A stretch of DNA of 64,000 nt, taken from IMG/VR virus record IMGVR_UViG_3300012204_000007, positions 1-64,000 of that record; one strand, given 5' to 3'. The stretch is from a virus. Shown here piece after piece: positions 44,446 to 60,379 of this stretch. The notes below the pieces were generated by a model, which was not told where the DNA came from, did no database searches, and worked only from the letters and a program-made list of their open reading frames with translations. The translations under genes and the position numbers were made by a program. The stretch's first letter is position 1. Every line of letters begins with the position of its first letter.

Positions 44446-44781
44446 TAATGATACCCGACCCAGAGAACCATACTTTCTTCGATGAGCAGGATGATGAATA
44501 TAGTGATGGCTCTGAGGATGATTGGTTCTTCATATTCTGTTCGGTGCTATTCATCATCTGGACCGTTTTGATTATTGCATTATTCTTGCTATGACATTCG
44601 ACTGGTGTGTACGTGGAGACCACAATGGTTGCAAGCGTGAGTACCGGCGCTTTTTGGTTGACCCGAAGACCAACAAGGTGGTATACTCAGACGATATGAG
44701 ATACTGCGAGTGCAAGGCGCGCGGTTGTAAATGTTATAAACCAACCAAAGACAGAACCAAGACGAGAAAGACGAGACGCAA

Positions 44782-45006
44782 ATGAAAGTAACCGTTGTTA
44801 AGTATTACGACACCGATTCATATAACTCACCGCCTCCGAGAGTGGTGGCTGTAGCAAAGAGCACTTCTGCGGCGATGCGCTGGATTAAGGCCGAGGTTGA
44901 TGGTGAGCATGAGGGCTCCTACAATACCTATGCAAAGGGTCACGATGCCCAATGGTGGTTTGAATACGGTACCTTCCGTCTCGAAGAGGTTGAGGTAGTG
45001 GAATGA
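44782..45006 (+). CDS. hypothetical protein
   Basis: ATGA overlap chain. Confidence 0.65.
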   Translation: MKVTVVKYYDTDSYNSPPPRVVAVAKSTSAAMRWIKAEVDGEHEGSYNTYAKGHDAQWWFEYGTFRLEEVEVVE

Positions 45007-45323
45007 CATTTGTTGACGATATAAAAGAGTTTCTAGAAGAGAACCCCACAGACACACATGGTATTACATATTGGTTTGGTGCTACATTCGTAGAGTCTGA
45101 AACACATGACAAGCGTCGTTGGTATACTGTAGAGCATACAATCTTCAAAAAGCGTACGCTACAGTTGGAAGGCACCGACCTAGAGTGGGTCAAGGAAGAG
45201 TATGTGCTTGTGGAGCACTGTGAGCCTGCTACAGAATTGCAGGAGCGTGATGGGCTACCAGAGCCCACCGTATTTGCAGTAGAGCCTTACGAGGTCACTG
45301 AGACGAGGTACCGGCCGATATGA
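45003..45323 (+). CDS. hypothetical protein
   Basis: ATGA overlap chain; RRW..ATELQE motif. Confidence 0.7.
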   Translation: MTFVDDIKEFLEENPTDTHGITYWFGATFVESETHDKRRWYTVEHTIFKKRTLQLEGTDLEWVKEEYVLVEHCEPATELQERDGLPEPTVFAVEPYEVTETRYRPI

Positions 45324-45634
45324 AGCCAGAGGATGCATTCACCAAGAAGAGCCTAAAGCGATACAAGAAGATTAGACGTATTGCAGACGACACATATGTC
45401 GCGCTCGGCTATAATATAATTGTCGGTAGAAAGCGCGTCGAAGATGGTAAGTCAGATATTGTCTACTTAGAGGTAAGGCGTGCACACGCCTTCAACGAGG
45501 GCTACACCAGCCATTGCTTTTGTTTTGAGTCCATGCCAACAAAGCGCGAAGTCACCCAAGTCATTAGGCTGTTGATACTGACGGCGATGAATGTCACCGT
45601 TACTACAGAAGGAGAGAAGCCATGTGGATTCTGA
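45320..45634 (+). CDS. hypothetical protein
   Basis: ATGA overlap chain. Confidence 0.65.
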   Translation: MKPEDAFTKKSLKRYKKIRRIADDTYVALGYNIIVGRKRVEDGKSDIVYLEVRRAHAFNEGYTSHCFCFESMPTKREVTQVIRLLILTAMNVTVTTEGEKPCGF

Positions 45635-46146
45635 CAGTTATCGTAACGGTATTCGGTATCGTAGTAGGTAGAGAAATAGTCAAAACAACGTTTGAAAATA
45701 GTCGCAAGACTAACTATAAAGGCATGGTTTTGTTTTCTATGTGGGTTGTTACATACGTAATATATATATGGGTGGCAATCTGATGGTCTTTATATATATA
45801 TGTATTCTGCTGATTGTATGGTTCATCATATGGCGACCCAGTATGGTCGATGCATTCAAGAATAGAAAGACCAACGACGCCGGTATAAAGCAACTAGACA
45901 ACATCGAATACATCGAAGACATTCTTAAAGAATGGAAGGATAAATGAAACTTACATTAACAGGCAGCGAGTGGATGTTAGAGATTGACACCGATATCAAT
46001 AGACATGGAGTAGGAGTGACACCAATGTCGCTTACTCATCACTCCTTTCCCACTCATTACACAAGGGACGGATATCCAATGGGAATTGAATTCTTCCCAG
46101 CAGGTGAATGCGACATTGCAGGTTATTGGGTGGAGGTAGATAGCCG

Positions 46147-46788
46147 ATGAACTATACAACTGAGAATGCACAAGAATTGATTGAAGAGTGGGACTACCAC
46201 AATCGTAGGCATAACTGCTATTATGAGCAGTCTGATGATGCTGGTCCCTATGAAGAATGCCCAGCCGAACACGCGACACTGCGTGCATTCATGATGAGCA
46301 AGGGATTCCCTGTCAGTTACAAGAATGATTGGGTTCTTGGACGTGAACTAAACGAACCTAATTATAGATTGAAGAGCGAAGCAATATATGGACCAAGGCG
46401 GGTAAACTCATTGTCTACCCGCCTAAAGGAAAGTATTGAGCGTCTAGAATCCAAAGGCCACGCGGTAGAAAAGATTGAGACCCCAGAGGAACAGGAAGCC
46501 TTCGACACCGCATGGAAGACGCCTCTACGAGACAGGTACAAGCAAGTGTTGACAGACAACACGGACGCCGTGCTGAGGAATAGGGCTGAGAGGGCCAGAA
46601 ACGACGGTCAGAGCGCCGGTAGTAATGAAGTGGACCCAGGACACCATGAGTATTATAAGAGCCGTTTAGACAGCATAGAGAGTGTTCTTGTAAATGTGGT
46701 TAGAAAGTTGGACTGGATTCAAGAGCGGTTGGGCGAACTCGCGCCGGTAGTAACAGATGATGATTATAACTGGTATGACGACCTATGA
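46147..46788 (+). CDS. hypothetical protein
   Basis: GGAGG RBS; last gene of plus-strand block. Confidence 0.7.
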   Translation: MNYTTENAQELIEEWDYHNRRHNCYYEQSDDAGPYEECPAEHATLRAFMMSKGFPVSYKNDWVLGRELNEPNYRLKSEAIYGPRRVNSLSTRLKESIERLESKGHAVEKIETPEEQEAFDTAWKTPLRDRYKQVLTDNTDAVLRNRAERARNDGQSAGSNEVDPGHHEYYKSRLDSIESVLVNVVRKLDWIQERLGELAPVVTDDDYNWYDDL

Positions 46789-46938
46789 GCGCCGGTAGGA
46801 AATTTAATCAAGAAGATATTGATGAAATCATTCCCAAAATTCACGGTAACAAAGCAACTGTAGTTTGGTTTACTAATGGTCAATACTACTGCTCTTGTGG
46901 TGGCAACAATGAACTTATACTTCGTGAATAAGAAAAGA

Positions 46939-46981
46939 TTATCCACAAGATAGGTTAACCTGTGGATAAAGTTGTGGAAAA
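46939..46981. promoter_or_regulatory. DnaA-box cluster
   Basis: TTATCCACA 46939, TGTGGATAA 46961, TGTGGAAAA 46973. Confidence 0.65.
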
Positions 46982-47441
46982 AGAGTTAACACCGTAAACA
47001 AAAGTAATATGTGTAAACTGTGTAGGGGATATAGTGTATTGGAAATATACAAATGCGCCAAATTTAAGCCTATTTTATGTACAATTGGCCTAATTTTATC
47101 CAAAAAAGTGTACCAATGGCCCAATATACCCAAAAATGACCCAAAACCTCATATGCCATACAAAACCGGGCCGGTAGTCAGTCTTTGTTATACTTACTAG
47201 ATATTATTATAGGGATTGACTACCGCGCCCGTTGAATATAGCATATCACAGCGTTCAATTACCATTTTGTAAGTTGAATATGACATTTGGGAAGGTTAGG
47301 TATCACTTGATGCATTAAAATAGACCATTTGATAGGGTAAAATATATACCAATACAGACCATATGGTCTGTCTCGTAATGTTTATTCTACGGATATCGTT
47401 GTTGAGTGAGGTTTTGAACCATGAGATAATCTGAATTTTCC

Positions 47442-47552
47442 AGGAGATTCTACGCCCTATCGTAATACTCTCTGATATAGATATGTCAATTATTTCATAA
47501 ATGACAATACTGTTCAGGAGATATATACTTTCGTCGTAATCTATTGTGATAT
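47442..47552. repeat. two copies of 37-bp motif AGGAGAT-N11-TCGTAAT-N6-TGATAT (third copy at 543-579)
   Basis: identical spacing in three copies. Confidence 0.75.
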
Positions 47553-47658
47553 TGTTATCTCAATTGTTTAAATGGGAAAATGTTATGGGAATTGCCCACC
47601 ACCGTAAGGTGGTGGGCAAAACCAAAGGATATAAGAAAAGGCCCCGAAGGGCCTTGAC

Positions 47659-47910
47659 TTATGCGACTCGCAGCAGCACGTCTTCACGAGCCTCAGCCAG
47701 CGTCATGTCATAATGACCCCAGCAAGCGCACTGGTTCAGGTCACTATCGTAGTAAAGATAGTGAGTTGAAAAGGCTCGACTGGGGAATGAGTACGCGGGC
47801 TGTCTGACTACCGCCCAACCACAAAGCATGTTCTCTACCTCTTCGGCGGCCTCGTCGCGGATGAAAGCAACCAATTCACCGTGCAGGCCGGTGACAGTGT
47901 GAATGTTCAT
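47659..47910 (-). CDS. hypothetical protein
   Basis: AAGGAG RBS; WGHYD motif; terminator follows. Confidence 0.75.
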   Translation of the reverse strand: MNIHTVTGLHGELVAFIRDEAAEEVENMLCGWAVVRQPAYSFPSRAFSTHYLYYDSDLNQCACWGHYDMTLAEAREDVLLRVA

Positions 47911-47919
47911 TATTACTCC

Positions 47920-48441
47920 TTAGAAGTATCGGTTGTACTCATACTGGTACTTGGTGGGCATGTCTTCTAGACTCATGGTATCACCATTCTTGGTCCAGCG
48001 CAAGGGAGTACGACCACATGGGTGATGGAAGTATACGCGCTGAGGGAGACGGTGTGCCTTGTGAACTGCCTTATCGCAGATGCAGCACGTACCAACTACC
48101 GCGTGGTCTGGACGTACTGAGGGCGTTACACACCGCTCCGGAGTGGCACCAACCTTACGGGCAACGATGCGCCAGCGAGGACCATGATGTGCCTCTGCAC
48201 CAGCAATTGCATGCGCAATCTCATGTAACACCACATCGCGGACCTCGGCGGCCGGTAGCAGAGTTACATAGTGCTTTGATAGGCTGATATTAATGGGCTT
48301 CCAGATGGTATCGTTCCACTCCTTGATGAATTGAGTTTGACCAAGCCTGGTCTTAGAATTGTCAAACTTGAACTCAAGGTGACCGACACCATGGAGAGCC
48401 ATCAGGGCCTTTGCATGCTTCTCTACCTGTCTAAGTTCCAT
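47920..48441 (-). CDS. SprT-like metalloprotease
   Basis: LHEIAHA..HGPRW...GA. Confidence 0.88.
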   Translation of the reverse strand: MELRQVEKHAKALMALHGVGHLEFKFDNSKTRLGQTQFIKEWNDTIWKPINISLSKHYVTLLPAAEVRDVVLHEIAHAIAGAEAHHGPRWRIVARKVGATPERCVTPSVRPDHAVVGTCCICDKAVHKAHRLPQRVYFHHPCGRTPLRWTKNGDTMSLEDMPTKYQYEYNRYF

Positions 48442-48529
48442 GGTGTAACCTTACCTCATATTCTCTACCGGCGTCAAGACGCTGTGTGCTTTTGCCCACC
48501 ATGTTTCACTGTTGGGCATTTACAAAAGA

Positions 48530-48650
48530 TACAACAAGGCCCGAGCATCGTCGTGGCGATGCTCGGGCCGGTATGTGAAGGTGGATTGACCGTCAAACTC
48601 CTTATGCCCTAGCCTGCCGACTGATAGGGCCACCTTCGTTATGTTGTGTA
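48530..48650 (-). ncRNA. candidate small RNA cassette
   Basis: promoter TTGACA-N17-TACACT, stems, terminator, no credible ORF. Confidence 0.5.
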
Positions 48651-48698
48651 ACAAGTGTAGCAGACGGGCGGTAGCGTGTCAACTACCGCCCGTCGTGG

Positions 48699-49049
48699 TC
48701 ACTCAGCCAGACGCTCAGCCTCAAGAGCCAGCGCGAGCAGGTCCTTGTCGAAACGACCACGCTTACCAGCCGGGTGACCGAGCAGCGCGCGGGCGTGCTC
48801 CGTGGTGACAGTGACAGGCTTGGTCGTCTTGCGACCACCCGCGAGCATCACGACATTCACGGTGATGGTCCGCTTCTCAGCCTCGGAAGCGACCACGTAG
48901 ACCTTGCTGCGGTTGGCCTTGTTGAAGGCGGCGATGATGTCCGGGTTGAGTCGGCCTCGGGTACCGGGAGCCTTGACGCCCTCGGGCTTGGCCTCGTTGA
49001 ACCACTCGCGTACGGCGCTGGCGGGAACGTTGGTCTTCTTGCTAGCCAT
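48699..49049 (-). CDS. lsr2: Lsr2-like DNA-binding protein
   Basis: SAVREWF..GTRGRLNPDIIAAF; second KRGRF motif. Confidence 0.78.
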   Translation of the reverse strand: MASKKTNVPASAVREWFNEAKPEGVKAPGTRGRLNPDIIAAFNKANRSKVYVVASEAEKRTITVNVVMLAGGRKTTKPVTVTTEHARALLGHPAGKRGRFDKDLLALALEAERLAE

Positions 49050-49266
49050 GGTGTTTCTCCTTAGAGTTGTTGTTGGTTGGCTTATGAGTGATACTCTACG
49101 CGATTCTGGTGTTGCTGTCAAGCCTTTTGAGAAGTTTTAACCGCCGAACATGATGCCATAGACGATGGCACCGAGCATCGCAAGGACTGGCCACATGCCG
49201 ATTATGGCAAGGCCAAGACATAGACCGAGCGTTACCATGGCGGCTATTAATATGCGGTCGATACAA

Positions 49267-49635
49267 TCACCGCCTTTCTTCAATGCTGACAGTGATGAAA
49301 TTGTGAATCGTGGGGGTGTTACACATGTGGTTAGTGAGACTCACCCGACACGTGTTGCAACACTCACGCATGGAATACGTCTTACCGTCAGCATCCCGCG
49401 CGAGGTATTCCTTCTCAGGAAAGCGGAAATCATCAGGCGAGAGATAGGGAGAATCTCCATCCTTCTTGACCTCGGGAGCCTTGTCAGACTTGACTACCGG
49501 CGCGCCGGTAGTAGAATCAGAGAATCGCATACCCTCAGACTCAGCCTTAACAAGTGCCTCTTTTGCGGCATTGGAGAACTTGCCACGGCCAGGCTTAGCC
49601 AGACCCTTTGAAACGAGGTAATCACGCTTGTTCAC
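49267..49635 (-). CDS. Lsr2-C-like/AT-hook hypothetical protein
   Basis: RDYLVSKGLAKPGRGKFS; C-terminal CCNTC..H.C. Confidence 0.55.
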   Translation of the reverse strand: MNKRDYLVSKGLAKPGRGKFSNAAKEALVKAESEGMRFSDSTTGAPVVKSDKAPEVKKDGDSPYLSPDDFRFPEKEYLARDADGKTYSMRECCNTCRVSLTNHMCNTPTIHNFITVSIEERR

Positions 49636-49865
49636 TTTGCCTCCTGAGGAATTGAGTAATCAAGCGGAACAACCACGACATTGTTTTCACAAATCATGGG
49701 ACCATCGTTGGCTAGGTCTCCGCTGTTATGCACATAGACAGCCTCTGGATAGGTTGCCAATCGGAAGACGGCAGGACAGCCTTCACAGAAGACGCGGTTG
49801 GAATACGGGACGTTGAGCACGAGGGTATGAAGGTGCATGGTGTTCCTTTCTCTTGAGATAAGCAT
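49632..49865 (-). CDS. hypothetical protein
   Basis: GTGA overlap with downstream gene. Confidence 0.55.
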   Translation of the reverse strand: MLISRERNTMHLHTLVLNVPYSNRVFCEGCPAVFRLATYPEAVYVHNSGDLANDGPMICENNVVVVPLDYSIPQEAK

Positions 49866-49905
49866 ACCCCATTGTAATGGGTATGTCCAGCCCTATGGGC
49901 TGGCA

Positions 49906-50211
49906 TCACCACCAGGGGCGAACAATAGGGTCAATGTACTCGGAGAGGTTCACGCCGTGGTCGCAGGCGACTTCCTCAGGGTCATTGCCGAGAACAAAGA
50001 AGATGAATGATGTACGACCATCGGGCAGGTCGACGTACACAATGGCCTCATCTACGTTGGTAACTAGGTCAACAGCCTCCTGCACGGAACTGACTTCCTG
50101 AGTCTCCTCTGGATTCCATGTATCGTCACCCACGCTTGTGACCTTGCAGCCCACGTTGGTGAGACCGTCAAGGATGAGAGTGATGGCTTCGCGGTCGTTG
50201 CTGGGCTTCAT
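49906..50211 (-). CDS. hypothetical protein
   Basis: AAGGAG RBS; FVLGNDPEEVACD motif. Confidence 0.75.
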   Translation of the reverse strand: MKPSNDREAITLILDGLTNVGCKVTSVGDDTWNPEETQEVSSVQEAVDLVTNVDEAIVYVDLPDGRTSFIFFVLGNDPEEVACDHGVNLSEYIDPIVRPWW

Positions 50212-50382
50212 TGAAACTCCTTGGTTCGTTTGGCTGGTAAGTACAGCGTAACAGAAAATCCCAGTGATTACAAGGCTCTATCGTAATGGGATTATATGGG
50301 ACGCGGGCAAAATGAAAATGCCCAACACGATGGTGGGCAAAACGGTAGGATATAGAAAAGCCCCGCCGAAGCGGGGCTAATC

Positions 50383-50733
50383 TTAGTCGTTAGCGCAACG
50401 AACCGGGTCGTCGGCGTCCATGCCCTGGCGATAGAGCGGAGCGCCGTCCGGGTCGGTGGCCTGAGTCCAGCCATCGGACTCATCGGCATTCCAGTCGTAG
50501 TCCCAAACCTTTCCGCACGACATGCACTCGCCGTGCAGGTCATCAATCCAGTCGAGGTCGCCACCAGTGCACCAGCGCTGGTCGCGCTCACACGGAGCCT
50601 CGCCGTCGTTGTCGTAGAAGTGGTCGGCTTCATAGTCCGCTTGCGCGTCCATGTCCAGTTGCTGCTCGAATCGCCACGCGGCGCCATCCATGATGGGCTC
50701 GCCGTCTTCGTTGGTCCATCCATAATTGCTCAT
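50383..50733 (-). CDS. acidic hypothetical protein
   Basis: GC3-rich codons, terminator downstream. Confidence 0.7.
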   Translation of the reverse strand: MSNYGWTNEDGEPIMDGAAWRFEQQLDMDAQADYEADHFYDNDGEAPCERDQRWCTGGDLDWIDDLHGECMSCGKVWDYDWNADESDGWTQATDPDGAPLYRQGMDADDPVRCAND

Positions 50734-51007
50734 GGTGCAATCCTACTCGTCATCGTTGGGGTTGTCAAGGACCGGCACGCCATCTTCAAGATGATAACGC
50801 GGGTCATGCGTGAGGCATGAATGGGTTTCGTCTGGTGTGTCATACATATATTAATTACACTACCGTCGTATTTAAAAGTCAAGTCTTTAATGGAAATGCC
50901 CACCATCCTCCGGATGGTGGGCAAAACCGCCGGTAGGCGGTTTTGCTATTAACTGAATGCCCCTATTACAATAATGACAATGACAACAATAACAATTGCC
51001 ACCATCA

Positions 51008-51553
51008 TTACTTAATTCCCTTCTCACGTCGCCAGGTAATCCAGGTAATAGCCTGAATCTGGTTTACCGAGATACCGGCTTCGTTGGCAGCCACAGAATA
51101 CGCGGCAGCCATATCCCGATAGATGCGCTTACCAATCTTGCGTGTCTTATCGGTAAACACCTGGTTCATGGCGATATCGAATGCGTGACGGTCGATGGTG
51201 GCAATGTTTGCCTTACCATTGGTGGCAATTGCTGTTGCGAAGTTGCGTGTCTTATCCCCACGCATAACATCTAGCGGATGCTCACCGTCGAGAATGCGCT
51301 GCGCATATGCAGTATGAATACTGATATGTCCTGAGACAATGCCGGTATCGAATGCGTTACGCGCAAGTCTGACATTGAGATTCCATGTTTTGAGCGGAGA
51401 TAGCGCGGCAATAACACCGGCACCGCGCCACACATTATTAGGGGATAATTCGAGCGCGAGGTTATGAGCCTCGTTATACCAGACCATTCCGGCGGCATTG
51501 TCGTCAGCGGTGGCGCGCGCAAAGCACGCGGCGATATTCTCTGAATACGTCAT
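51008..51553 (-). CDS. conserved phage protein (DUF7178-like)
   Basis: G..WY..A, AGVIAALSP..W..N, TIDRHA, QAITW. Confidence 0.75.
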   Translation of the reverse strand: MTYSENIAACFARATADDNAAGMVWYNEAHNLALELSPNNVWRGAGVIAALSPLKTWNLNVRLARNAFDTGIVSGHISIHTAYAQRILDGEHPLDVMRGDKTRNFATAIATNGKANIATIDRHAFDIAMNQVFTDKTRKIGKRIYRDMAAAYSVAANEAGISVNQIQAITWITWRREKGIK

Positions 51554-51716
51554 GGCACCATTGTACGCGCTAGGAGCAGACGGCGCAAGCCCCAGCGGAA
51601 ATGCCCAATAGGTAGTGATGGTGGGCAAAACCAAAATAGTATTGCGCTGGCGGCCGGTATGCCGTATTGTTGTCTTTGTCAGGGGGAACAGCCCCCAATC
51701 AGACTTAGGAGCAATC

Positions 51717-51914
51717 ATGGCTCGACGCAGGACTCGCACTGTCAGCATTCCGACCACGTTCGTTGGCACGTTCTATGACGTGCAGGCGGGTGTCTACGTT
51801 GCCACTCGCAGGGATGGCAGCCTCACCGTGGGCGCTATCAACAAGCGCGGCGTCAATGTGCAGGCTGCGGACTTGGTCATCGGTTCTGACCCGGCTGTCT
51901 ACACGGAGCACTGA
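51717..51914 (+). CDS. hypothetical protein
   Basis: AGGAG RBS. Confidence 0.65.
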   Translation: MARRRTRTVSIPTTFVGTFYDVQAGVYVATRRDGSLTVGAINKRGVNVQAADLVIGSDPAVYTEH

Positions 51915-51915
51915 C

Positions 51916-52062
51916 ATGGATGAGGTCGATGAGGTCATCCAGTCGTGGGCCATGGTAGCGGAAGTTATCTATGAGCGCAGGACGGCAGGTGACCACACTT
52001 GGTCAGGCTTCCTCAGTGAGTTTTTGACTGAGGTCGACAAGGCGCGCGAGAGCGTATCGTAA
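51916..52062 (+). CDS. hypothetical protein
   Basis: GGAG RBS, terminator after. Confidence 0.6.
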   Translation: MDEVDEVIQSWAMVAEVIYERRTAGDHTWSGFLSEFLTEVDKARESVS

Positions 52063-52172
52063 CCAAAACCCCACTGTAAAAGGTGGGGTTTTGGTATGTC
52101 TTTCGTAAATGCCCAGCACAAGATGTTGGGCAAAAGCGTTAGATATAAGAAAAGGGCCCGAAGGCCCTTGAC

Positions 52173-52373
52173 TTAGTCTTTATGGAGTCTGACTGTCACT
52201 GTCTGATGGAATGGAGGCTTATAGCGGTCGACGCTCCACCCAAAGAGAGAGTGCGGGTCCTCATTGACAGCGGCCATGGCGAAACCGACAATCATGTCCT
52301 CTGAAACGGCACCGATGTTTTCCACCATGACCTCGGTCACGGTCTTTCCACGGTCAATTGAACGAATGTTCAT
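52173..52373 (-). CDS. hypothetical protein
   Basis: GGAG RBS, terminator after. Confidence 0.6.
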   Translation of the reverse strand: MNIRSIDRGKTVTEVMVENIGAVSEDMIVGFAMAAVNEDPHSLFGWSVDRYKPPFHQTVTVRLHKD

Positions 52374-52374
52374 A

Positions 52375-52548
52375 TCAGAACTCCACTCGAATCTCAATGG
52401 TGCGATACCAAACGGTATCGTCCTTGGAAGCCATGATGCTGGCAACGGCGGCGATGCCCTCAGCCACGTTGTCACCTTGATAGAAAGGCATGTCCACTGG
52501 TTCCTGTGGGTTGGCGCTGGTGCTCTGGACCTTCTGAATAACTCTCAT
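52375..52548 (-). CDS. hypothetical protein (57 aa)
   Basis: leaderless behind TTGACA..TAGTCT. Confidence 0.6.
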   Translation of the reverse strand: MRVIQKVQSTSANPQEPVDMPFYQGDNVAEGIAAVASIMASKDDTVWYRTIEIRVEF

Positions 52549-52646
52549 GTCTAAAGACTACGCTCTCTAGGTGGCTGTGTCAAGTGGATATGGAAATGCC
52601 CAACACTTCGTCTGGTGGGCAAAACCGGGCCGGTAGGCCCGGTCTG

Positions 52647-52880
52647 CTAGTAGTCCACGTCCTCGAATTCGTATTCCTCATCAAACGAGGTAACGATTGT
52701 GATTGGGTCGAATGGTCCGACAGAGATGAAAGTGTGAACCGCATCTTCATCAACAATGTCGAGTTCGATAAAGTCTCCATCGTCATTGATGGAATAGATA
52801 TATCCAAGCAAGCATCCGTCATTATCGAGAAGGAAGTCATTGTTCTCGATAACGTACGCGAACACTACGTCAGTTTTCAT
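52647..52880 (-). CDS. acidic hypothetical protein
   Basis: terminator after. Confidence 0.65.
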   Translation of the reverse strand: MKTDVVFAYVIENNDFLLDNDGCLLGYIYSINDDGDFIELDIVDEDAVHTFISVGPFDPITIVTSFDEEYEFEDVDY

Positions 52881-53046
52881 TGGTATCCCTTACTCTCTTT
52901 GCAATGTCATGGAGCAACTTGCTAGCGTGCCGCTCGGCTGACCGAAACGAACGGAATGCTCTTGGCTTGCCATCCTTGGAAACACGAATGCCGGTATAGA
53001 GACTACGAATGTAGTATCGCCGACCGTACCTTTCTACTTCAAACAT
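52870..53046 (-). CDS. basic hypothetical protein (58 aa)
   Basis: MFEVERYGRRYYIRSL...; TAATG coupling. Confidence 0.55.
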   Translation of the reverse strand: MFEVERYGRRYYIRSLYTGIRVSKDGKPRAFRSFRSAERHASKLLHDIAKRVRDTNEN

Positions 53047-53294
53047 TAGGACACTTTGACCGTGTCTCCAACACGCACAATCTGACCGTAAAACTTACGG
53101 TTTTTGTACGGGTCGGGGCCGACGAAGTAGTGTGTTACGCCCTGAGGCATATCGACCACGCGACCGCTGTATTCGTTGCCAAAAACAGAAGTTGCTTCCA
53201 GCCTGACAAGAAAACCATTGCCCTCGGCAATAGTATCTTTGATTGCCTTTTTTGACTTGGGCCTTCCAGCGCCAATCCAGATACCTTGCGTCAT
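53046..53294 (-). CDS. hypothetical protein
   Basis: AGGAGG RBS; RPKSKKA..ATS.FGNEY.G..VGPDPY..R.FY. Confidence 0.75.
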   Translation of the reverse strand: MTQGIWIGAGRPKSKKAIKDTIAEGNGFLVRLEATSVFGNEYSGRVVDMPQGVTHYFVGPDPYKNRKFYGQIVRVGDTVKVS

Positions 53295-53543
53295 GATTCC
53301 TCCTAGAGTTTGGTCCACCAGAATGGTAGCACAGTGGCAAGCCACCATGCAACCACGAGCCAGGCGATTGTAAGAACAACCTTCCCGCGTGTGGTCATGA
53401 GTAAAGGCTAGCACGATTGCCCGAGATACGCAAGCGCAATCGTAATGGCAATATTCAGGGTGAAGGGCATTGTGGAAATGCCCACCACAGTGTTGGGCAA
53501 AACCAAAGGATACAAACAAACCCCGGTTTCCCGGGGCTGTTTG

Positions 53544-53771
53544 TCAGAAAGCGAACCCGAACTTGGTTCCGCTGTCGTTGCTGTCCGCCTCGACACCACT
53601 ATGCCACTCCCACCCGAGAACGGTAGCGAGCACACCAGCCGCGTGTCCGTGGTTCCATGCGGTTGACTTGGAAAGGTCGAGCGGCGTCGTACGCTGCACG
53701 CCGCCACCCTTCGCACGAATCTTTGGGGTGCCGTTCACGTTCACGTACTCAGTACGAATGATGTTGCTCAT
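53544..53771 (-). CDS. hypothetical protein
   Basis: AGGAG RBS. Confidence 0.7.
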   Translation of the reverse strand: MSNIIRTEYVNVNGTPKIRAKGGGVQRTTPLDLSKSTAWNHGHAAGVLATVLGWEWHSGVEADSNDSGTKFGFAF

Positions 53772-53956
53772 TAGTTCTCCTGAAAGCGTCGGTTGACATG
53801 CTTGGACTTACGGTTATACTTGGTACCCGAAGGTACCGGCGAAGTTGCGGAAGACTTACGCAATTCTATCATTGCGTCAATGTAATGGCGGTTGCCAGCC
53901 TTGCGTGACTGATTACGCCGATTCTTACCGCTCTGGCGATTGGTCCTGTTTGCCAT
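53771..53956 (-). CDS. basic hypothetical protein
   Basis: ELRKSSAT..KYNRKSKH. Confidence 0.65.
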   Translation of the reverse strand: MANRTNRQSGKNRRNQSRKAGNRHYIDAMIELRKSSATSPVPSGTKYNRKSKHVNRRFQEN

Positions 53957-54174
53957 TAGTCGACCGCCATTCCAATAATGCCCTCGCGCTTGAGAATACG
54001 AATCTCAGTCTCAGCGTCCTTACGTAGATTCAGAGTGGCCGCCTTAATGAAACGCTCGCGGTCAAACTGTTCATTGAATTCTCCGCACATGTCAGCAAAG
54101 TCACAGACAAGTGCGAGATTGGCGCGGTTGGCGTCGAGGGTGTGGGCGATGGCTTCAAAGTGCTTTCTGGTCAT
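53956..54174 (-). CDS. hypothetical protein
   Basis: MTRKHFEAIA..N..FDRERFIKA phage motif; leaderless. Confidence 0.75.
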   Translation of the reverse strand: MTRKHFEAIAHTLDANRANLALVCDFADMCGEFNEQFDRERFIKAATLNLRKDAETEIRILKREGIIGMAVD

Positions 54175-54305
54175 GGGTAAAGACTAGCCTATCGTAACAG
54201 ATGAGTCAAGTAGTGATGGGCAATGATTTGATAATGCCCACCATCAATCTTGTGGTGGGCAAAATGAGAGAATAAAAGAAAAGGGCCGGTAGGCCCTTGA
54301 CTTTC

Positions 54306-54626
54306 TCAGTATTCGCGGTCGCTCTGATAATACTGCTCTTCCCAGTAGTCACGCTCGCGCTGAGCCTCCATCATGTCGTACTCCCGTGCGGCCAGCGTCT
54401 CCCACTGCTGTTCGGTCTCGCGCTCTTCCCAGTCGAGCACGGTCTGTAGTTCGTCGCGGTCGTGTTGGGTGACGGACTCCATGTCAGACTCTGACACGTA
54501 CCGGCGAGATTCGGGGTCGGTCTGGTCGTGCTCCCACGTGGGGTGGTTGTCATCCCACTCTTCGGCGTGCGCCTGGCGCGCGGTGTTGGTACGGCTGTCG
54601 GGGTCAAAGGCTTCGATGTAGGTCAT
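54306..54626 (-). CDS. acidic hypothetical protein
   Basis: leaderless behind TTGACA-N17-TACGAT. Confidence 0.7.
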   Translation of the reverse strand: MTYIEAFDPDSRTNTARQAHAEEWDDNHPTWEHDQTDPESRRYVSESDMESVTQHDRDELQTVLDWEERETEQQWETLAAREYDMMEAQRERDYWEEQYYQSDREY

Positions 54627-54807
54627 GTGACCATCGTACTTCACGATTCCCAGGGATGTCAAGGCCCTATCGTAATGGCGTGAAGTGGGGTGGCGGGTCT
54701 TTTGAAAATGCCCACCATCTGCATGTGTTGGGCAAAACCAAAACGCATTGAAAATACCCCGCTTGACATAGCCACTACTCCATGTCAAGCGGGGTAAGAT
54801 GGTGGGG

Positions 54808-55029
54808 TCAGACGTGCTTGAGTTCGCGCAGGGCCGCTTCGGCAATGTCGGTGCCGAACTTGTCCGCGAGGAAGATGCGCGAACCCATGAGGTCGCCCGT
54901 GCGGCGCAGGTCGCGGTACTTGCCTCGTCCGCTCGCGTACTCGACAGCGGTCAGGATGAGCGCGTTGCGCTTGGCAGCCTTGTCGGCGTGGTTGTGAAGG
55001 ACGGTGGCGGGAGTCGGGTTCTTGGTCAT
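54808..55029 (-). CDS. hypothetical protein
   Basis: leaderless behind TTGACA..CATAAT. Confidence 0.7.
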   Translation of the reverse strand: MTKNPTPATVLHNHADKAAKRNALILTAVEYASGRGKYRDLRRTGDLMGSRIFLADKFGTDIAEAALRELKHV

Positions 55030-55209
55030 GTCTCTATTATGGGCCATGTGGGAGAGTGGTGTCAACAGATAATTTGAAAATGCCCAACAGGTGTTGGGCA
55101 AAACCCCGAGTTAGCGGGGTTTTGCGACAAAGGGCTTAGGCGATGGTAACCTAGGCACTGGCGGCGGGTATTGAATCTGCATAATTCCTCCTAATTCATG
55201 ATAACACAA

Positions 55210-55524
55210 TTACTTGCAAAGACCATGAACCGTGTAACCATAGTCCTGTGAGGTGGTTCCCTGCAATATGGCTTTATTGACAATGGCCATATTGCCGGTA
55301 TAGGTAACATCACCGTTCGGAAGGGTGACCACCGCGTGATGCGGGTAGCCATCCTTGGGCTGACAGCGCTCCATGAGCACAACGGGGCTTCCAGCAGGGT
55401 GGGGGCGCGTGTCAGCGGCAGGATTGGCCTGCGCCTGGAATGATGTGAAGGCAACATGAACCGCGAAGGCGAGAATCGCAAGAATCTTCACAATATGTGC
55501 GTCACGCTTGGTCGGCTTGTTCAT
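55210..55524 (-). CDS. secreted hypothetical protein
   Basis: signal peptide ending AQA. Confidence 0.65.
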   Translation of the reverse strand: MNKPTKRDAHIVKILAILAFAVHVAFTSFQAQANPAADTRPHPAGSPVVLMERCQPKDGYPHHAVVTLPNGDVTYTGNMAIVNKAILQGTTSQDYGYTVHGLCK

Positions 55525-55953
55525 ATCCCAAGATTAGCACATGTTATCGTAATCGCGCAATATAGGATACCGGGCATTCCCAAAATGCCCAACACTGCGT
55601 GTGTTGGGCAAAAAGATAATTTTCAAGCGGATTATTGACTTTATCGTAATCGTGTGATACCGGGTGCTGGGCATAGTTGGTTGCCGAAGGCAACCATTGC
55701 ATGTGCATAGGCATACTGCCGGTATGCCAGGGTGCCGCCGGTATGGTCACATACCCTCAGTACGTTGTCCCATGCATTGTTTGTCTCACAGTGTGGTCTT
55801 CCCCCAGTCCACAGAATGGACACTTTCAAACTACTTTCATGTGTTTCCGCAGGTCAGAGCGTTGCGCCCAAGTTTTTACCTTTCTGCTGGGCATATTCCC
55901 TATGCGTGTCCTACCTTGGTACTGCAACACAAACCACTACCTAGGAGCACACC

Positions 55954-56139
55954 ATGGCAAGCACAAGCGTCCCTCGGGCGGAGATTCAGCCGGGCATGAT
56001 TCTGCGCTCGACGCGGTGGAGTGAACTGCTCATCCTCAGCGCACCGAACAGTCGCGGCATGGTTCGTTGTGAAACGTACGATTCCACGGGCACGGCAATT
56101 GTCGTTGTCCTTCCCTACAAGGTCATTAGGTGGCTCTGA
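55954..56139 (+). CDS. hypothetical protein
   Basis: AGGAG RBS. Confidence 0.6.
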   Translation: MASTSVPRAEIQPGMILRSTRWSELLILSAPNSRGMVRCETYDSTGTAIVVVLPYKVIRWL

Positions 56140-56140
56140 C

Positions 56141-56653
56141 ATGTGTAACCAGACCCTCGCTCATGGTGTGACCACCGTGTGCAGCAAGGTCCGCCCGGAA
56201 TGCCACGCTCCCTCGGGCTACAGCGTCAAGGACTACAGCGCAAAGCAAGCACCCAATGGCATCGCACCCCGTGACCGTATGCGTGACGTCATCCTCGCAT
56301 TCTGGGAGTCGCAGGGGGTCGCACGTTGGGTGTCTGGCGGCAAGGGTGGGGGCGGCCGGTGGCAGGTGCGCGACATGGTGAACGGTGGCGCGGAATGGCT
56401 TCCTCTCGCTGACGGTACCGAATGGGGCAGTGGCCGTGCGCAGGTCGCAGAGTTCTCCCACATCGTGTCAACCAACAATCGTGGCGCATGGTGCGCTTGC
56501 AATCTGCTTCCTGAATCGGGAGCAACTAATGCGGCACGTGGGGAGATGAGCATTGTGACCCTCTCGCCCGGTGCACGTGCCTTGCTCGCGGCGTGGCCTG
56601 CCTACTGGACCAAACACTACGCGCGGAAGGCTTCACTCGCTCGGCTGTCCTGA
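56141..56653 (+). CDS. HNH-like endonuclease
   Basis: EFSHIVS...G....NL......N..RG. Confidence 0.55.
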   Translation: MCNQTLAHGVTTVCSKVRPECHAPSGYSVKDYSAKQAPNGIAPRDRMRDVILAFWESQGVARWVSGGKGGGGRWQVRDMVNGGAEWLPLADGTEWGSGRAQVAEFSHIVSTNNRGAWCACNLLPESGATNAARGEMSIVTLSPGARALLAAWPAYWTKHYARKASLARLS

Positions 56654-56710
56654 CAACACTGCCCGGGGGAGCATCCGCTCCCCCGGGCCAACACTGAAAG
56701 AGAGACCATC

Positions 56711-56956
56711 ATGACTCGCTCTGCCACTCCCCCGGTCGCTGTTTGGTTCGGCGCTCCCGCCTTCCTTGACTATGACAGCCATGGTGACCTGACCCTCTGG
56801 TTGGGTGCGCCGAACAGTGCCTACCCGCGTGCGCTCATGTCACAGAACAAGTGCGACAGCACGGTGTGGGACATGCTCATGACCCTGTTCGATGCCGACG
56901 ACCTGGCCCACCTAGTCAAGCAGCGTGACGCATGGTCAAGCGTTAATGACTTCTAA
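56711..56956 (+). CDS. hypothetical protein
   Basis: GAAAG RBS, terminator after. Confidence 0.65.
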   Translation: MTRSATPPVAVWFGAPAFLDYDSHGDLTLWLGAPNSAYPRALMSQNKCDSTVWDMLMTLFDADDLAHLVKQRDAWSSVNDF

Positions 56957-56960
56957 TCCC

Positions 56961-57000
56961 ACAGGAAGCCCTCAGATTGGCTCTGAGGGCTTCCTGTTTT
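56961..57000 (+). terminator. intrinsic terminator
   Basis: ACAGGAAGCCCTCAGA/TCTGAGGGCTTCCTGT-TTT. Confidence 0.85.
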
Positions 57001-57331
57001 ATCTGTGGGTACCGACCCCATTGGGACCCCCCGCACGTCTCCTAGGGCCCATTCTGTGCGTCTGAGACGCCTTCCCACGTGCGCACTATCCTGTGCTGCG
57101 CATAGCGCTCTCGGGGTAGTATCATACAAGATAGATATTTTTTAACATTTACAAATATTGATATAATAGTCTAGTCTTTTTGTAGACTTTCAGCGGGACT
57201 CCATGTCCATCCCCACCGCTTGTTACACGGGGTATGATGTTTATGAATACCACACGGTGGAGAACCCACTGGGCAGTCCGGTGAATATTTCCAACAAACT
57301 TCTATAAGTTCATCGTTGTCATATATACACA

Positions 57332-57547
57332 TTACTCTTCTACCGGCCCCGGTATAAAAATATCTGGGTTGTTGTGACCCTTGTTCTCATGATGTTCATA
57401 TAGTTCGTTGGCGGTATCTTCATCAAGATGAGTTAGTATAGCCATACCAATGTCATACAGTCTCATTAGTAGTGCTATTTGAACAAGGTCTTGTTCTGAG
57501 GGCTCACTTACTAATACCGGCGGTAGTTCTTCGTTCCAGTCGTTCAC
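57332..57547 (-). CDS. hypothetical protein
   Basis: GTGA overlap chain. Confidence 0.65.
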   Translation of the reverse strand: MNDWNEELPPVLVSEPSEQDLVQIALLMRLYDIGMAILTHLDEDTANELYEHHENKGHNNPDIFIPGPVEE

Positions 57548-57747
57548 TCTTCATCGCTCCATTCAAATGTCATAGTACAATACATTGTAACATCTAAAGT
57601 AAATTGGTCTGTCCATGTTGTTTCTGAATCTACGTCAACCGTAGTTAGAACAGCATTTTCAGGTAGTTTTAGTGCATTGAGGGCAGCAATAATCTCTGCC
57701 TTACCGCCGCTGCCTACATTTACCTTAACGCTCTTGTGAACCCTCAC
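57544..57747 (-). CDS. hypothetical protein
   Basis: GTGA overlap chain. Confidence 0.6.
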   Translation of the reverse strand: MRVHKSVKVNVGSGGKAEIIAALNALKLPENAVLTTVDVDSETTWTDQFTLDVTMYCTMTFEWSDEE

Positions 57748-58904
57748 AGTTCCTCTTTCTTGTAGTTAGAGATTTCCATGCGTGCTGCTTGAGCACTCTC
57801 TGGGTGAAGTTTCAAGATATTGACAAACTCCGCCATAGATGGGAACTTAGGTAGTTTTACTGCTACCGGCTCGTCATATACCCACAAGAACATCTCTTCT
57901 ATCTGAGAATCTATTGGCGGTAGAAGATGAATCTTCTTATCCATCCTACCGGCGCGGATAAGAGCATCGTCTAGGTTCTCAACATGATTTGTTGTCATAA
58001 ATGTCATGAGGCCGTTAGGAGTTGCTACGCCATCTAGAGCGTTGAGAAGGCCAGCCAATGTTGGGCCTGGTCCTAAGTCAGAATCTCTAGTCACACTACT
58101 AGAGAAGATATCAACATCTTCCAATAGTAGAATAGAGTTGTCTTCAATTGTATTGATAGCACTCACCAACATATTGTCATCCTTAAGTGCAGCCAGGGAG
58201 AGTGAGTATAGACTCATCTTGTACCTATGCGCAATAGCCGCCACGAGAGAGGACTTACCATTGCCAGGTGGACCATAGAACAGATAGCCTCTGTGCCACG
58301 GTGCACCGATTCTTTCGTACTTCTTCTCATTCTCAAAAAACCCGCTAATGTCATCTAGCAAAGAGTTTTTTACACCTTTCGGCAGAAAGATAGACTCAAT
58401 ATCGCGGTATGATAATGGAGACTGGCTCCAATAACTACTGGTATAGGTAAGGATATTTACCGTCTTGGTCTCCATCTTGCGCGCTTCTGTAAGTTCTTCG
58501 AACTTCTCAAGTAGCATTTCGATACCGGCGCGGGTACGACATTTGAAAATCATCTCACCCTTTGGCTTGTTACCATCGTACGAGTCAATGATAACATTGG
58601 TCTCAGGCATCGCTACAGAAATCTTATATTCGTAACCTCTATAGTTGACCTTAGAAGTACCATTTTGGTTGTAGACCTTGTGCAAGCCTATTGAGTTAGA
58701 CTCTACGCGAGTATGGTTCGTCTTGGTCTCATCGACCAACCAGCGCAGCAGTGCTGGATAGATATACGCAGAGCCATCTACGGTCATTGTATATTGAAAC
58801 CTCTCTTCGTATCTTGTTTTTAGGTCTCTAGAGAGAGACCACGCTGTGGTCGCCACACTGAGCGCAGTCGCGGCGGTAGCGAGTTTACTCTTCTTCTTCG
58901 TCAT
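57744..58904 (-). CDS. AAA+ ATPase, BCS1-like
   Basis: PWHRGYLFYGPPGNGKSS, LLEDVD, LLNALDG, TTNH..LD.ALIRAGRMD. Confidence 0.88.
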   Translation of the reverse strand: MTKKKSKLATAATALSVATTAWSLSRDLKTRYEERFQYTMTVDGSAYIYPALLRWLVDETKTNHTRVESNSIGLHKVYNQNGTSKVNYRGYEYKISVAMPETNVIIDSYDGNKPKGEMIFKCRTRAGIEMLLEKFEELTEARKMETKTVNILTYTSSYWSQSPLSYRDIESIFLPKGVKNSLLDDISGFFENEKKYERIGAPWHRGYLFYGPPGNGKSSLVAAIAHRYKMSLYSLSLAALKDDNMLVSAINTIEDNSILLLEDVDIFSSSVTRDSDLGPGPTLAGLLNALDGVATPNGLMTFMTTNHVENLDDALIRAGRMDKKIHLLPPIDSQIEEMFLWVYDEPVAVKLPKFPSMAEFVNILKLHPESAQAARMEISNYKKEEL

Positions 58905-59196
58905 CGCCTGTCTCTATCTCCCAAAAGTTTTCCATACGTAGCAAAGTGCCCCTGTCATCCATAGGGATAAGGTCCAACTTAATGGATGCATTTTCTCTTG
59001 TATAGTATGGTCTCGTTAGTACGTCCATCATGTCATAATCATAATCTTGACCCAACTCAATCTCTATAATGCCTGTGCGACCACATATTACTCGCTCTCT
59101 CTTGTCGTCATCAATCTCGACAAGAAAGACCTTGTATTGCTTGGTCTTAATATGCTGCAATCCATTATTCACTAATATTCTCCGAATATGTCTCAA
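58885..59196 (-). CDS. hypothetical protein
   Basis: fills gap between thyX and ATPase. Confidence 0.55.
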   Translation of the reverse strand: MRHIRRILVNNGLQHIKTKQYKVFLVEIDDDKRERVICGRTGIIEIELGQDYDYDMMDVLTRPYYTRENASIKLDLIPMDDRGTLLRMENFWEIETGDDEEEE

Positions 59197-59938: not shown

Positions 59939-60176
59939 TATTCCTTAGGTTTTCTACTATCTCGCCAATATTGGCTCTAATCTGGTCCCATGTATATATA
60001 CTAATACCAAATACAGTTCGGCATGCAAAGCATTTGAGTTCTGGTTCTGAGTGCTGTCCGACTACGGGGACAAGTTCGCTCTGACAGTCTGGACATACTA
60101 TCACGGGAGCATCGCCATTGGCTACCGCTGAGCGGTAGACATGAATTGCAGGCCATTTGTCTTCGTCCCTCACCAA
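59928..60176 (-). CDS. Zn-ribbon hypothetical protein
   Basis: CPDC..CFAC. Confidence 0.65.
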   Translation of the reverse strand: MVRDEDKWPAIHVYRSAVANGDAPVIVCPDCQSELVPVVGQHSEPELKCFACRTVFGISIYTWDQIRANIGEIVENLRNNDN

Positions 60177-60379
60177 TAACCTCTTTTAATACGCTTACTA
60201 GACTTGAAATGGTACCATCGGATGGGAAAGAAATCCATCTCACCGTCAATGTTATTAGTCTTGCATATGTGCCATCTACCGCAATCAGAACATGGTATGA
60301 GAGTTCCTTTGACATAGTGTGATGGATGACCATACATTCTGCATATATGCTTTTCCGAAGGTCCTATGATATCTCTCAT
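60170..60379 (-). CDS. hypothetical protein
   Basis: H.C..CSDCGRW..C. Confidence 0.6.
   Translation of the reverse strand: MRDIIGPSEKHICRMYGHPSHYVKGTLIPCSDCGRWHICKTNNIDGEMDFFPIRWYHFKSSKRIKRGYW

Follow-up and report, generated by a model that had tools for sequence, protein, structure and literature searches.

Clade-specific palindromes between terminator and promoter in a candidate terminal repeat of a BE-like actinobacteriophage: putative operators of small early gene units

What is the role of a short inverted repeat (IR) that returns again and again between the small genes of one block of a phage genome, and nowhere else in it? The question was raised by the IMG/VR virus record IMGVR_UViG_3300012204_000007, of which bases 1-64000, hereafter referred to as the window, were analyzed; the whole record comprises 120,830 bases and is rated 94% complete. 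A first-pass annotation of the window had described an array of gene cassettes punctuated by 12 copies of a palindrome of the type TGCCCA..TGGGCA, and had proposed two kinds of role for it, recombination sites for the shuffling of early-gene cassettes or paired protein sites regulating the first-injected DNA. Here the palindrome was found to occupy a regular position between an ordinary terminator and a promoter of the host type, at distances that fall into classes, within a GC-rich island (47550-57000) of small, mostly minus-strand genes of early type, which we predict to represent a direct terminal repeat collapsed in assembly and a host-takeover-like block. The reading that we favor, with a probability of roughly 0.5, is that the palindrome represents a double-stranded DNA operator or upstream site of a clade-specific factor, which would control all the early promoters within a terminal repeat built of cassettes similar to the promoter early stem-loop (PeSL) cassettes of T4-type phages.

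By a pattern search with relaxed inner triplets (TGCCCA-NNA-N(2-9)-TNN-TGGGCA), a total of 12 matches were identified between 47593 and 55610, numbered here along the plus strand: IR1 (47593-47618), IR2 (48493-48518), IR3 (50319-50339), IR4 (50897-50923), IR5 (51602-51627), IR6 (52110-52132), IR7 (52597-52621), IR8 (53479-53499), IR9 (54235-54261), IR10 (54709-54734), IR11 (55081-55100), and IR12 (55586-55610). The strict pattern, with MCA and TGK as the inner triplets, gave 10 matches, and neither pattern gave any in 100 dinucleotide-preserving shuffles. All 12 copies are located outside the open reading frames (ORFs) accepted as genes; the intergenic copies first described are thus real, and the statement that no full copy exists elsewhere in the window holds for the entire 120.8-kb record, in which a control pattern read backwards also gave no match. 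Each copy is 20-27 nt in length and consists of 9-nt arms and a spacer of 2-9 nt; the spacer is variable, as had been noted, but its lower limit is 2 nt and not 1 nt. On the plus strand, flanks of AAA..AAA(A/C) were found for 11 of the 12 IRs, which are read on the minus strand, and TTT..TTT for IR2 at 48493, in agreement with the initial count of 11 copies in one orientation and a single flipped copy. The frequent mismatch at one position of the arms was also observed, position 7 being unpaired in seven of the 12 copies (C.T in four, A.G in two, and A.C in one). Perfect stems of 11 and 12 bp are formed by IR1 and IR4, respectively, and the inner triplet is ATA in IR5 and GCA in IR6. The predicted hairpins of the window copies are weak, with a median of -10.4 kcal/mol against -18.0 kcal/mol for the copies in the relatives described below, and a search of Rfam at gathering thresholds over 46500-58000 gave no match.

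Read on the minus strand, the units are arranged in the order of stop codon, terminator hairpin (T1), TTT-flanked palindrome, a gap of 13-46 nt, promoter of the form TTGNNN-17/18-TANNNT, 6 nt, and ATG. The palindrome in this direction reads TTT-TGCCCAMCA..TGKTGGGCA-TTTY and is followed by a short A/T-rich stretch. About a dozen small early-gene units are set apart by such modules. By an independent consensus scan, 23 promoter-like sites were detected against 8.9±3.1 in shuffles, and 22 terminator-like sites against 8.9±3.0; the units of a promoter, one to three small genes, and a terminator, as described at first, are therefore real at the consensus level. Seven canonical minus-strand hairpins, all from the consensus scan, end 19-20 nt before the palindromes, to which they are joined by a conserved T-rich linker. 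These are located before IR1 (47638-47655, with a linker of 19 nt), IR2 (48538-48569), IR3 (50359-50378), IR6 (52152-52169), IR8 (53519-53538), IR9 (54281-54298), and IR10 (54755-54796). Three further palindromes are directly abutted by compact hairpins of an A-tract and a T-tract with stabilities of -19 to -22 kcal/mol: IR4 (50921-50946, -19.6 kcal/mol, sharing 3 nt with the palindrome), IR7 (52619-52647, -21.6 kcal/mol), and IR11 (55098-55125, -18.9 kcal/mol).

A promoter follows 10 of the 12 window palindromes, and in nine of those the ATG is located exactly 6 nt past the -10 element, so that leaderless starts are frequent (nine of the 12 units), as had been suggested. The leaderless promoters on the minus strand are TTGACG-18-TAAGGT (48439-48477) for the SprT-like gene (47920-48441; Pfam SprT-like, 7.6e-11), TTGACT-17-TGTAAT (50845-50882) for the gene at 50743-50847, TTGCGC-17-TACAAT (51551-51588) for the DUF7178 gene (51008-51553; Pfam DUF7178, 4.2e-47), TTGACA-17-TAGTCT (52546-52583) for 52375-52548, TTGCGT-17-TAGCCT (53396-53433) for 53303-53398, TTGACT-17-TAGTCT (54172-54209) for 53956-54174, TTGACA-18-TACGAT (54624-54662) for 54306-54626, TTGACA-18-CATAAT (55027-55065) for 54808-55029, and TTGCGC-18-TAATCT (55522-55560) for 55210-55524. 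The remaining minus-strand promoter, TTGTAA-17-TACGCT (50245-50273), precedes a gene with a Shine-Dalgarno leader (49906-50211). In addition, an inverted cassette carries a plus-strand promoter, TTGCGC-17-TATTGT (51643-51671), in front of a gene starting from 51718.

The distances between the palindrome end and the -35 element in the window are 13, 13, 14, 15, 15, 25, 25, 45, 45, and 46 nt, and half-sites of the sequence TGCCC[AG] or TGGGCA occur between the IR and the -35 element in the longer distance classes. IR2, the sole copy with flipped flanks, is placed 15 nt upstream of the -35 element of the SprT-like gene promoter, and IR5 separates two divergent promoters, with 13 nt to the -35 element on the minus strand and 15 nt to that on the plus strand. 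The two copies without a following promoter are IR1, the last of the array, after which an AT-rich non-coding stretch follows, and IR6, at a convergent junction. No same-strand gene is located upstream of IR5 or of IR12, the first copy of the array, yet both retain the flanks and the promoter spacing.

The island that holds the array extends over about 47.55-57.0 kb and shows a GC content of 0.48-0.62 per 500 bases, against 0.35-0.46 on both sides; it is the sole such island in the record. It contains about two dozen very small ORFs, mostly on the minus strand, and 20 of the 24 ORFs scanned had no match in Pfam. The matches obtained were to SprT-like, DUF7178, one Lsr2-type protein, and, weakly and below threshold, REV1_C; a second Lsr2-type protein was detected through PHROGs only. 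Genes for an AAA ATPase and ThyX come next on the same strand. The same layout, with small minus-strand genes, an Lsr2-like gene inside, and ThyX just beyond, was found in the experimentally defined direct terminal repeats of phages Coruscant and Mildred21, whereas no such block is present at the left ends of the BK-type phages Muntaha and Blueeyedbeauty. The GC step (0.51-0.54 against 0.44-0.47) resembles that of the BE-cluster repeats, for which 54.4% against 47.0% elsewhere is given in PMC8612146. The repeats of BE1 phages measure 10.7-11.5 kb (PMC5764925, Table 1) and that of Coruscant about 12 kb (PMC7650747); the record length of 120.8 kb equals that of a BE genome of 131-134 kb less one repeat copy of about 11 kb. 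The Logan contig that covers 42.2-59.05 kb reached a mean word depth of 11.4 in two soil runs, with the next contigs at 6.5-6.9; by our own arithmetic, this fits roughly 12 kb at double depth and is taken as a coarse hint. The rIIA-like gene of the window has its best matches, at 31-34% identity, in large Streptomyces phages of Stanwilliamsviridae. On the basis of synteny, GC step, record length, and contig depth, the island is most likely an assembly-collapsed direct terminal repeat of about 10-12 kb, and the phage a lytic, BE-cluster-like (Stanwilliamsviridae-type) actinobacterial phage, by analogy with the cultured ones.

Some further features of the phage and of the island may be added. 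A set of 34 tRNA genes and a tmRNA gene (tag AEAEAILAEAALVTA) is encoded on the plus strand at 2537-25018 of the window, as in BE-cluster phages. The phage was detected at an identity of at least 99% in soil metagenomes of four separate studies, with two single-base differences over 44500-60500. The early block lies about 8-10 GC points above the rest of this AT-rich phage, and one may speculate that this could spare the first-expressed DNA from host Lsr2-type silencing; in PMC8612146, a block transfer is proposed instead.

The palindrome was then found in uncultured relatives. A nucleotide search of the phage collection with 47200-56200 of the window gave no match, and a search of IMG/VR with the neighboring AAA ATPase gave no close relative. 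A motif scan of IMG/VR gave no second array in the best 80 of 96 stretches, and the hits were single and unrelated except, among those listed, for one three-copy tandem (locus L079). In a scan of metagenomes, 36 distinct loci were obtained, and 13 contigs proved to be relatives carrying the palindrome repeatedly. The relatives share island genes with the window at 35-68% amino acid identity, one of them (L136) being linked through the gene families of the other relatives; the largest are L115 (9.7 kb), L132, and L124, and L114-L117 constitute a single contig. The remaining loci were set aside as chance single matches: these gave no hit to the genome, and the 12 put through tblastn shared no island genes.

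A total of 51 non-redundant copies, 12 in the window and 39 in the relatives, were thus available for comparison. The element of the relatives is usually 27 nt in length (23 of the 39 copies) with a perfect stem of 11-13 bp, and the range over all copies is 20-29 nt. A separate stable hairpin is located just upstream of 44 of the 51 copies, a T-rich tail (at least five T in 8 nt) follows 16 of the 51, and 27 of the 51 have a promoter downstream whose -10 element is separated from the ATG by 6 nt. Among 26 non-redundant leaderless promoters, 16 are located at 12-17 nt from the IR and one at 6 nt; other leaderless promoters stand at 24, 25, 25, 34, 45, 46, 52, 54, 64, and 67 nt, all of these distances giving residues of 2-7 modulo 10. 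The chance of this would be about 0.006 if the ten values were independent, but the test was framed after the fact and the copies share a common descent, and hence the figure is only suggestive.

The pairing of the arms was examined in the same 51 copies. At position 7 the combinations were AT in 31, CT in 13, CG in three, AG in three, and AC in one, leaving 17 copies mismatched, and no covariation was detected since shuffles do as well; position 8 showed a little covariation. Positions 10-12 are paired in 75% of cases against 68% in shuffles, a level reached by 12 of 1000 shuffles. An uncompensated outer-arm variant, TGCCCA..TAGGGCA, was found five times in L132 and once in L124, while a search allowing one change per arm gave no compensated change. 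Because the arms are conserved in sequence, covariation is mostly uninformative as a test of the hairpin; the lack of compensated changes and of covariation at position 7, however, indicates that the sequence itself is constrained within the clade, and not pairing alone. At about 5680-5720 of L115, a decayed palindrome was noted in which the right outer arm is mutated to TGGGTT, and copies can therefore be lost by drift.

A second motif, TTACGAT(A/G)G, recurs around the promoters, located in the spacer between the -35 and -10 elements, around positions -47 to -41, or itself forming the -10 element. The exact sequence ATTACGATA is present on the minus strand of the window at 47458, 50279, 54668, 55545, and 55642, and the motif was also seen in the relatives L115, L132, L124, L129, and others. 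With one mismatch allowed, 35 sites were counted in the window against 16.9±4.5 in shuffles. The motif might represent another protein site, or else a promoter that overlaps.

In the cultured phages, different palindromes were found at the same place. Coruscant carries GGCGCC-N-GGCGCC in 16 copies per terminal repeat and in none within about 110 kb of unique sequence, and 12 of the 16 are located exactly 23 nt before a promoter of the form TTGNNN-17-TAAGCT. The BE1 phages carry TGTCCG-N3-CGGACA in 13+13 copies (Mildred21), 7+7 copies (Peebs), and 14+14 copies (Jay2Jay); one extra Jay2Jay copy lies about 0.7 kb beyond the repeat, and otherwise none was found in the about 110 kb of unique sequence of these phages. 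The distance to the -35 element in Mildred21 and Jay2Jay is 12-15 nt for 10 of 27 copies, 21-26 nt for another 10, and 32-33 nt for two, and extra half-sites, GGACAT or GGGCAT, occur within the longer BE1 spacings. Both arms change together between clades (TGTCCG/CGGACA against TGCCCA/TGGGCA) and are fixed inside a clade. The palindromes of BE1 phages and Coruscant have centers of 1-3 nt, mostly lack a T tail, and fold poorly. When the island genes were compared with the BE repeats, only an Lsr2-type domain (49267-49635, a clear match) and one weak hit were shared; since the other island genes are not shared between clades, what is conserved is the architecture and the Lsr2-type gene.

In the cultured phages, words of GGGCAT, GGACAT, and GTACAT are packed about 9-10 bp apart, in an iteron-like manner, where the terminal repeat has its inner edge (Coruscant, L101, 10901-11292; Mildred21, L102, 9805-10192). 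A looser GCAT-rich stretch is located at the matching place of the window, at about 55650-55800.

Recognition of the palindrome as double-stranded DNA is favored by the strict sequence within a clade, the coordinated change of both arms between clades, the half-sites, the distance classes of approximately one helical turn in three clades, and the restriction to the early block. The earlier suggestion of protein sites regulating the first-injected DNA fits these features, because clade-specific palindromes take the same phased position upstream of early-type promoters in a block that resembles a terminal repeat. A clade-specific trans-acting protein would bind the palindrome, sit on one helix face relative to RNA polymerase, and switch all the early promoters together, most plausibly by shutting them off or by boosting them. 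As to the direction, we would sooner guess at a common shut-off or modulation, since the promoters look host-type and should fire unaided. The block as a whole would correspond to the region that serves host takeover in SPO1 or T5, and the palindrome could have side effects as a weak back-up terminator and as a homology patch for occasional exchange or inversion of cassettes by general recombination. Extended to the BE-like actinophages in general, the proposal would be a control layer specific to the terminal repeat, in which each early promoter is tagged on one helix face by a palindrome read by a clade-specific phage factor and in which clades have switched palindrome and factor together; this wider form is put forward tentatively, as a possibility short of even odds.

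Several points weigh against an operator. The arm-to-arm distance varies by 7 bp in the window, which is awkward for a rigid dimer on B-form DNA, and the element of the relatives, mostly a perfect GC-rich stem of 11-13 bp that is closed by a loop of three or four nucleotides and followed by TTTT or TTTC, resembles a hairpin acting as RNA; the pairing at positions 10-12 slightly above shuffles points in the same direction. The distance classes could reflect descent from a few module types instead of selection for helical phase, the phasing statistic being post hoc and drawn from copies that are not independent. The terminal-repeat status of the island is assigned by analogy and from one coarse depth figure. 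With respect to the factor itself, the island genes are not shared with BE phages beyond the Lsr2-type domain and one weak hit, and two conserved island proteins whose structures were modeled yielded nothing resembling a regulator; a search of NCBIfam with ten island proteins gave no hits. One of the two, the Lsr2-type protein at 49267-49635 (minus strand; phrog_6269, 1e-15), combines an N-terminal Lsr2-like motif with a conserved Cys/His C-terminal domain, in which C93, C96, H103, and C105 are invariant in the alignment; its model (mean predicted local distance difference test score, pLDDT, of 77, and 82-90 in the C-terminal part) matched no solved structure with E ≤ 0.001. The model of the DUF7178 protein (pLDDT 77) is weakly similar to archaeal 8-oxoguanine DNA glycosylases of the HhH-GPD fold (Foldseek E of 0.02-0.07, TM-score of about 0.5), which is taken as a lead only. 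To our knowledge, none of the boxes of the Streptomyces regulators AdpA, DasR, BldD, and CRP fits the half-site.

The DUF7178 gene (51008-51553, minus strand) is the most conserved gene of the island within the clade, with 38-68% identity in eight relatives. The other Lsr2-type gene of the island (48699-49049, minus strand) carries two RGR DNA-binding motifs in tandem according to the alignment and matches Pfam Lsr2_DNA-bd at 4.9e-5, below the family cut-off.

A purely structural role at the RNA level is a serious rival to the operator, albeit a doubtful one. The palindrome would then be the second hairpin of a tandem (U- or V-shaped) intrinsic terminator, or an insulator, that prevents read-through from one strongly transcribed unit into the next, with copies that are alike through copying of the module and with single changes selected against. 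The IR always comes after the end of a unit, so that T1 and IR make two adjacent hairpins; the stem of the relatives, stable at a median of -18 kcal/mol, is followed by TTTT or TTTC along the direction of transcription; the orientation of the flanks tracks the direction of the neighboring units; and one window IR was itself called a terminator by the scan. The IR is nonetheless probably not the main terminator, because a separate hairpin is located upstream, T-rich tails are few, the window hairpins are weak, and some copies are placed where no same-strand transcript arrives. Furthermore, the outer 9 nt are kept in all 12 window copies in spite of the weak hairpins, position 7 is often mismatched without covariation, the search gave no compensated variant, the palindromes of BE1 phages and Coruscant are built on very short centers and mostly lack a T tail, and distance classes about 10 bp apart are left unexplained by a structural element.

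The alternative that the first-pass annotation had placed beside protein sites was recombination, and T4-like PeSL cassettes were among the known analogues that it named. In this explanation, the palindromes would be homology patches whose main selected role is the shuffling of cassettes, with general recombination deleting, swapping, inverting, or circularizing the early cassettes, as PeSLs of T4-type phages do according to PMC2839356 and PMC4122927. Among the 13 relatives, the units between repeats are indeed permuted or replaced, and one is inverted. The unit before DUF7178 holds gene family F24 in antisense orientation in the window and L124 and in sense orientation in L129, and an unrelated gene in L132 and L108; after DUF7178 follow F18 (window and L129), F28-F15 (L115, L140, and L121), or F15 (L124). 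The plus-strand promoter of the window cassette precedes a different gene, in sense orientation, in L115, and two blocks stand in swapped order in L115 and L132 compared with the window. Genes were, however, also gained and lost inside units, away from any repeat. Because the relatives are distant, only swaps at the level of units and one inversion are visible in the window clade. Breakpoints were examined in the closely related BE1 phages Mildred21, Jay2Jay, and Peebs with their analogous palindromes, where 11 of 64 edges of homology gaps were located within 60 bp of a palindrome against 9.3 expected (P = 0.33). The expectation that breakpoints fall at the repeats was thus not borne out in the BE1 phages, and of the proposed homology-driven exchange what stands is the swapping and inversion of units among relatives. 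Contigs of four soil runs over 44500-60500, which cannot show rare forms, starts, or ends, contained no joints, indels, or alternative arrangements. In addition, unit borders are favored as breakpoints whatever the repeat does, and a benefit from future shuffling is a weak cause of strict sequence conservation. Cassette mosaicism together with the negative BE1 test makes shuffling at module borders plausible as a by-product, as in PeSLs, and not the demonstrated purpose of the palindrome, for which we consider it unlikely.

Likewise unlikely is a signal for a DNA transaction specific to the terminal repeat and without a tie to transcription, such as pause sites during entry, nucleation of Lsr2-type bridging that compacts or shields the DNA, or sites for duplication or packaging of the repeat. 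In all four cultured phages, the analogues occur solely within the terminal repeats, apart from the single Jay2Jay copy beyond the repeat, the Lsr2-type gene is the only gene clearly common to the repeats of different clades, and A/T tracts flank the palindromes inside a GC-rich block, all of which would suit such a signal. Tight and phased coupling to promoters is nevertheless unexpected for entry or packaging signals, and Lsr2-type domains bind AT-rich DNA and not GC-rich palindromes, as is generally known and as stated in PMC8612146.

Still less probable is an RNA hairpin recognized by a sequence-specific RNA-binding protein or RNase that would process read-through transcripts, protect their 3' ends, or regulate antitermination. 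A recognized stem-loop would fit the conservation of the sequence, its ability to form a hairpin, and its orientation along transcription, but the hairpin lies downstream of a good terminator and upstream of the start site of the next promoter, and would be present in few transcripts; the BE1 and Coruscant palindromes fold poorly, and the half-sites and distance classes point to DNA.

Sites for a site- or hairpin-specific enzyme, either attC-like sites of an integron integrase or repetitive extragenic palindromic (REP) elements of a REP-associated tyrosine transposase (RAYT), can practically be dismissed: although the repeats come after gene units as attC sites come after cassettes, and the arms of the A/T variant, GCCCAAC .. 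GTTGGGC, fit the attC core consensus RYYYAAC .. GTTRRRY (on the plus strand four left and six right arms, but both arms in only two of the 12 copies), the C/G arm variants break this consensus, the element of 20-29 nt is far below the length of attC, every cassette has its own promoter and terminator, unrelated palindromes take the same place in sister clades, Rfam gave no match, and a profile search of the whole record detected no PF00589 (Phage_integrase), PF00239 (Resolvase), or PF01797 (Y1_Tnp, RAYT-type), whereas matches were obtained in the control genomes (14 of 14 for PF00589). The earlier remark that no recombinase is present in the window is thereby confirmed for the tyrosine and serine recombinases and the Y1 transposases over the full record, the suggestion of attC-like single-stranded DNA recombination sites is not upheld, and REP elements or REPINs (REP doublets forming hairpins) with a RAYT were rejected for want of a cognate Y1 transposase in the record.

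Compared with known systems, the operator proposed here combines features of several. Integron attC sites are about 57-141 nt in length, contain R''-L''..L'-R' boxes, and surround promoterless cassettes. The likeness to attC sites, or to clusters of attC sites lacking integron integrases (CALIN), consists of an imperfect palindrome after each gene unit and one arm variant that fits the consensus; the palindrome here differs in being too short, in the lack of an integrase, in cassettes with their own promoters, and in its variation between sister clades. The analogy with the PeSLs of T4-type phages, which had been drawn at first, is apt for the module as a whole, whereas the repeat stands next to the terminator as an addition to it. 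According to PMC2839356 and PMC4122927, T4-type PeSLs likewise form many small modules of terminator and promoter, in which the early promoter is of the host sigma-70 type and the upstream part is rich in A and T; they precede small genes without a known function in plastic regions where the cassette content varies among relatives. In the window, a promoter of the host sigma-70 type was found at the consensus level for 10 of the 12 repeats, in a plastic region before small genes that mostly lack a Pfam match (20 of 24) and whose content and order vary among the 13 relatives. The differences are that a conserved palindrome at phased distances stands here between an ordinary terminator and the promoter, that the promoters are actinobacterial and mostly leaderless, that the breakpoint test at the analogous BE1 palindromes was negative, and that the modules occupy one block, the predicted terminal repeat, while PeSLs lie in several hyperplastic regions.

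One palindrome repeated next to promoters, as in an operator array, was found in the window, in its relatives, and in the cultured phages. In the temperate Streptomyces phage phiC31, operators of the lysogeny repressor, the conserved inverted repeats (CIRs), are repeated in early intergenic regions. These are the closest in logic, being short palindromes in many early intergenic regions next to promoters or terminators; the differences are that phiC31 is temperate whereas the window phage has no integrase and the BE phages are lytic, that the sequences are unrelated, and that the restriction to a terminal repeat is new. Among mycobacteriophages, the stoperators of cluster A are asymmetric and genome-wide, the start-associated sequences (SAS) and extended SAS (ESAS) of cluster K are located at translation starts, and cluster O carries 17-bp palindromes. 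Dozens of copies of one short motif in the intergenic gaps of an actinobacteriophage, oriented with transcription, are common to all of these and to the present array; in contrast to stoperators and SAS/ESAS, the motif here is palindromic, lies upstream of the -35 element, and stays within a single block. Bacillus phage SPO1 has its host-takeover module in the terminal redundancy, and T5 its pre-early region in the terminal repeat. What these share with the island is a terminal repeat, predicted in the case of the island, of about 10-13 kb that is filled with small early genes in many short units, each with strong host-type promoters and terminators. We know of no palindrome family coupled to every promoter in SPO1 or T5. 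A comparison with these two phages is made in PMC5764925 for the repeat sizes only.

No published description of the palindromes was found by full-text searches of the literature, in the whole text of PMC5764925, or in passages of PMC7650747 and PMC8612146; the BE-cluster repeats are described as about 11 kb of small unknown genes and an lsr2-like gene (PMC5764925). The present analysis adds a regular regulatory grammar to the BE-type repeat, in the order of terminator, clade-specific palindrome, phased host-type promoter, and often a leaderless start, which holds in an uncultured soil clade and in the four cultured phages Mildred21, Jay2Jay, Peebs, and Coruscant. The idea of PeSL-type cassettes is thereby extended from T4-like phages of Gram-negative hosts to actinophages, and compact natural promoter and terminator parts are supplied for actinobacteria. 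Control of all early promoters by one factor is directly testable in laboratory systems, for example with Coruscant on S. venezuelae. If it is true, lytic phages would gain an immunity-like specificity for the synchronous shut-off or activation of their host-takeover genes, and a phage could silence the early genes of co-infecting kin.

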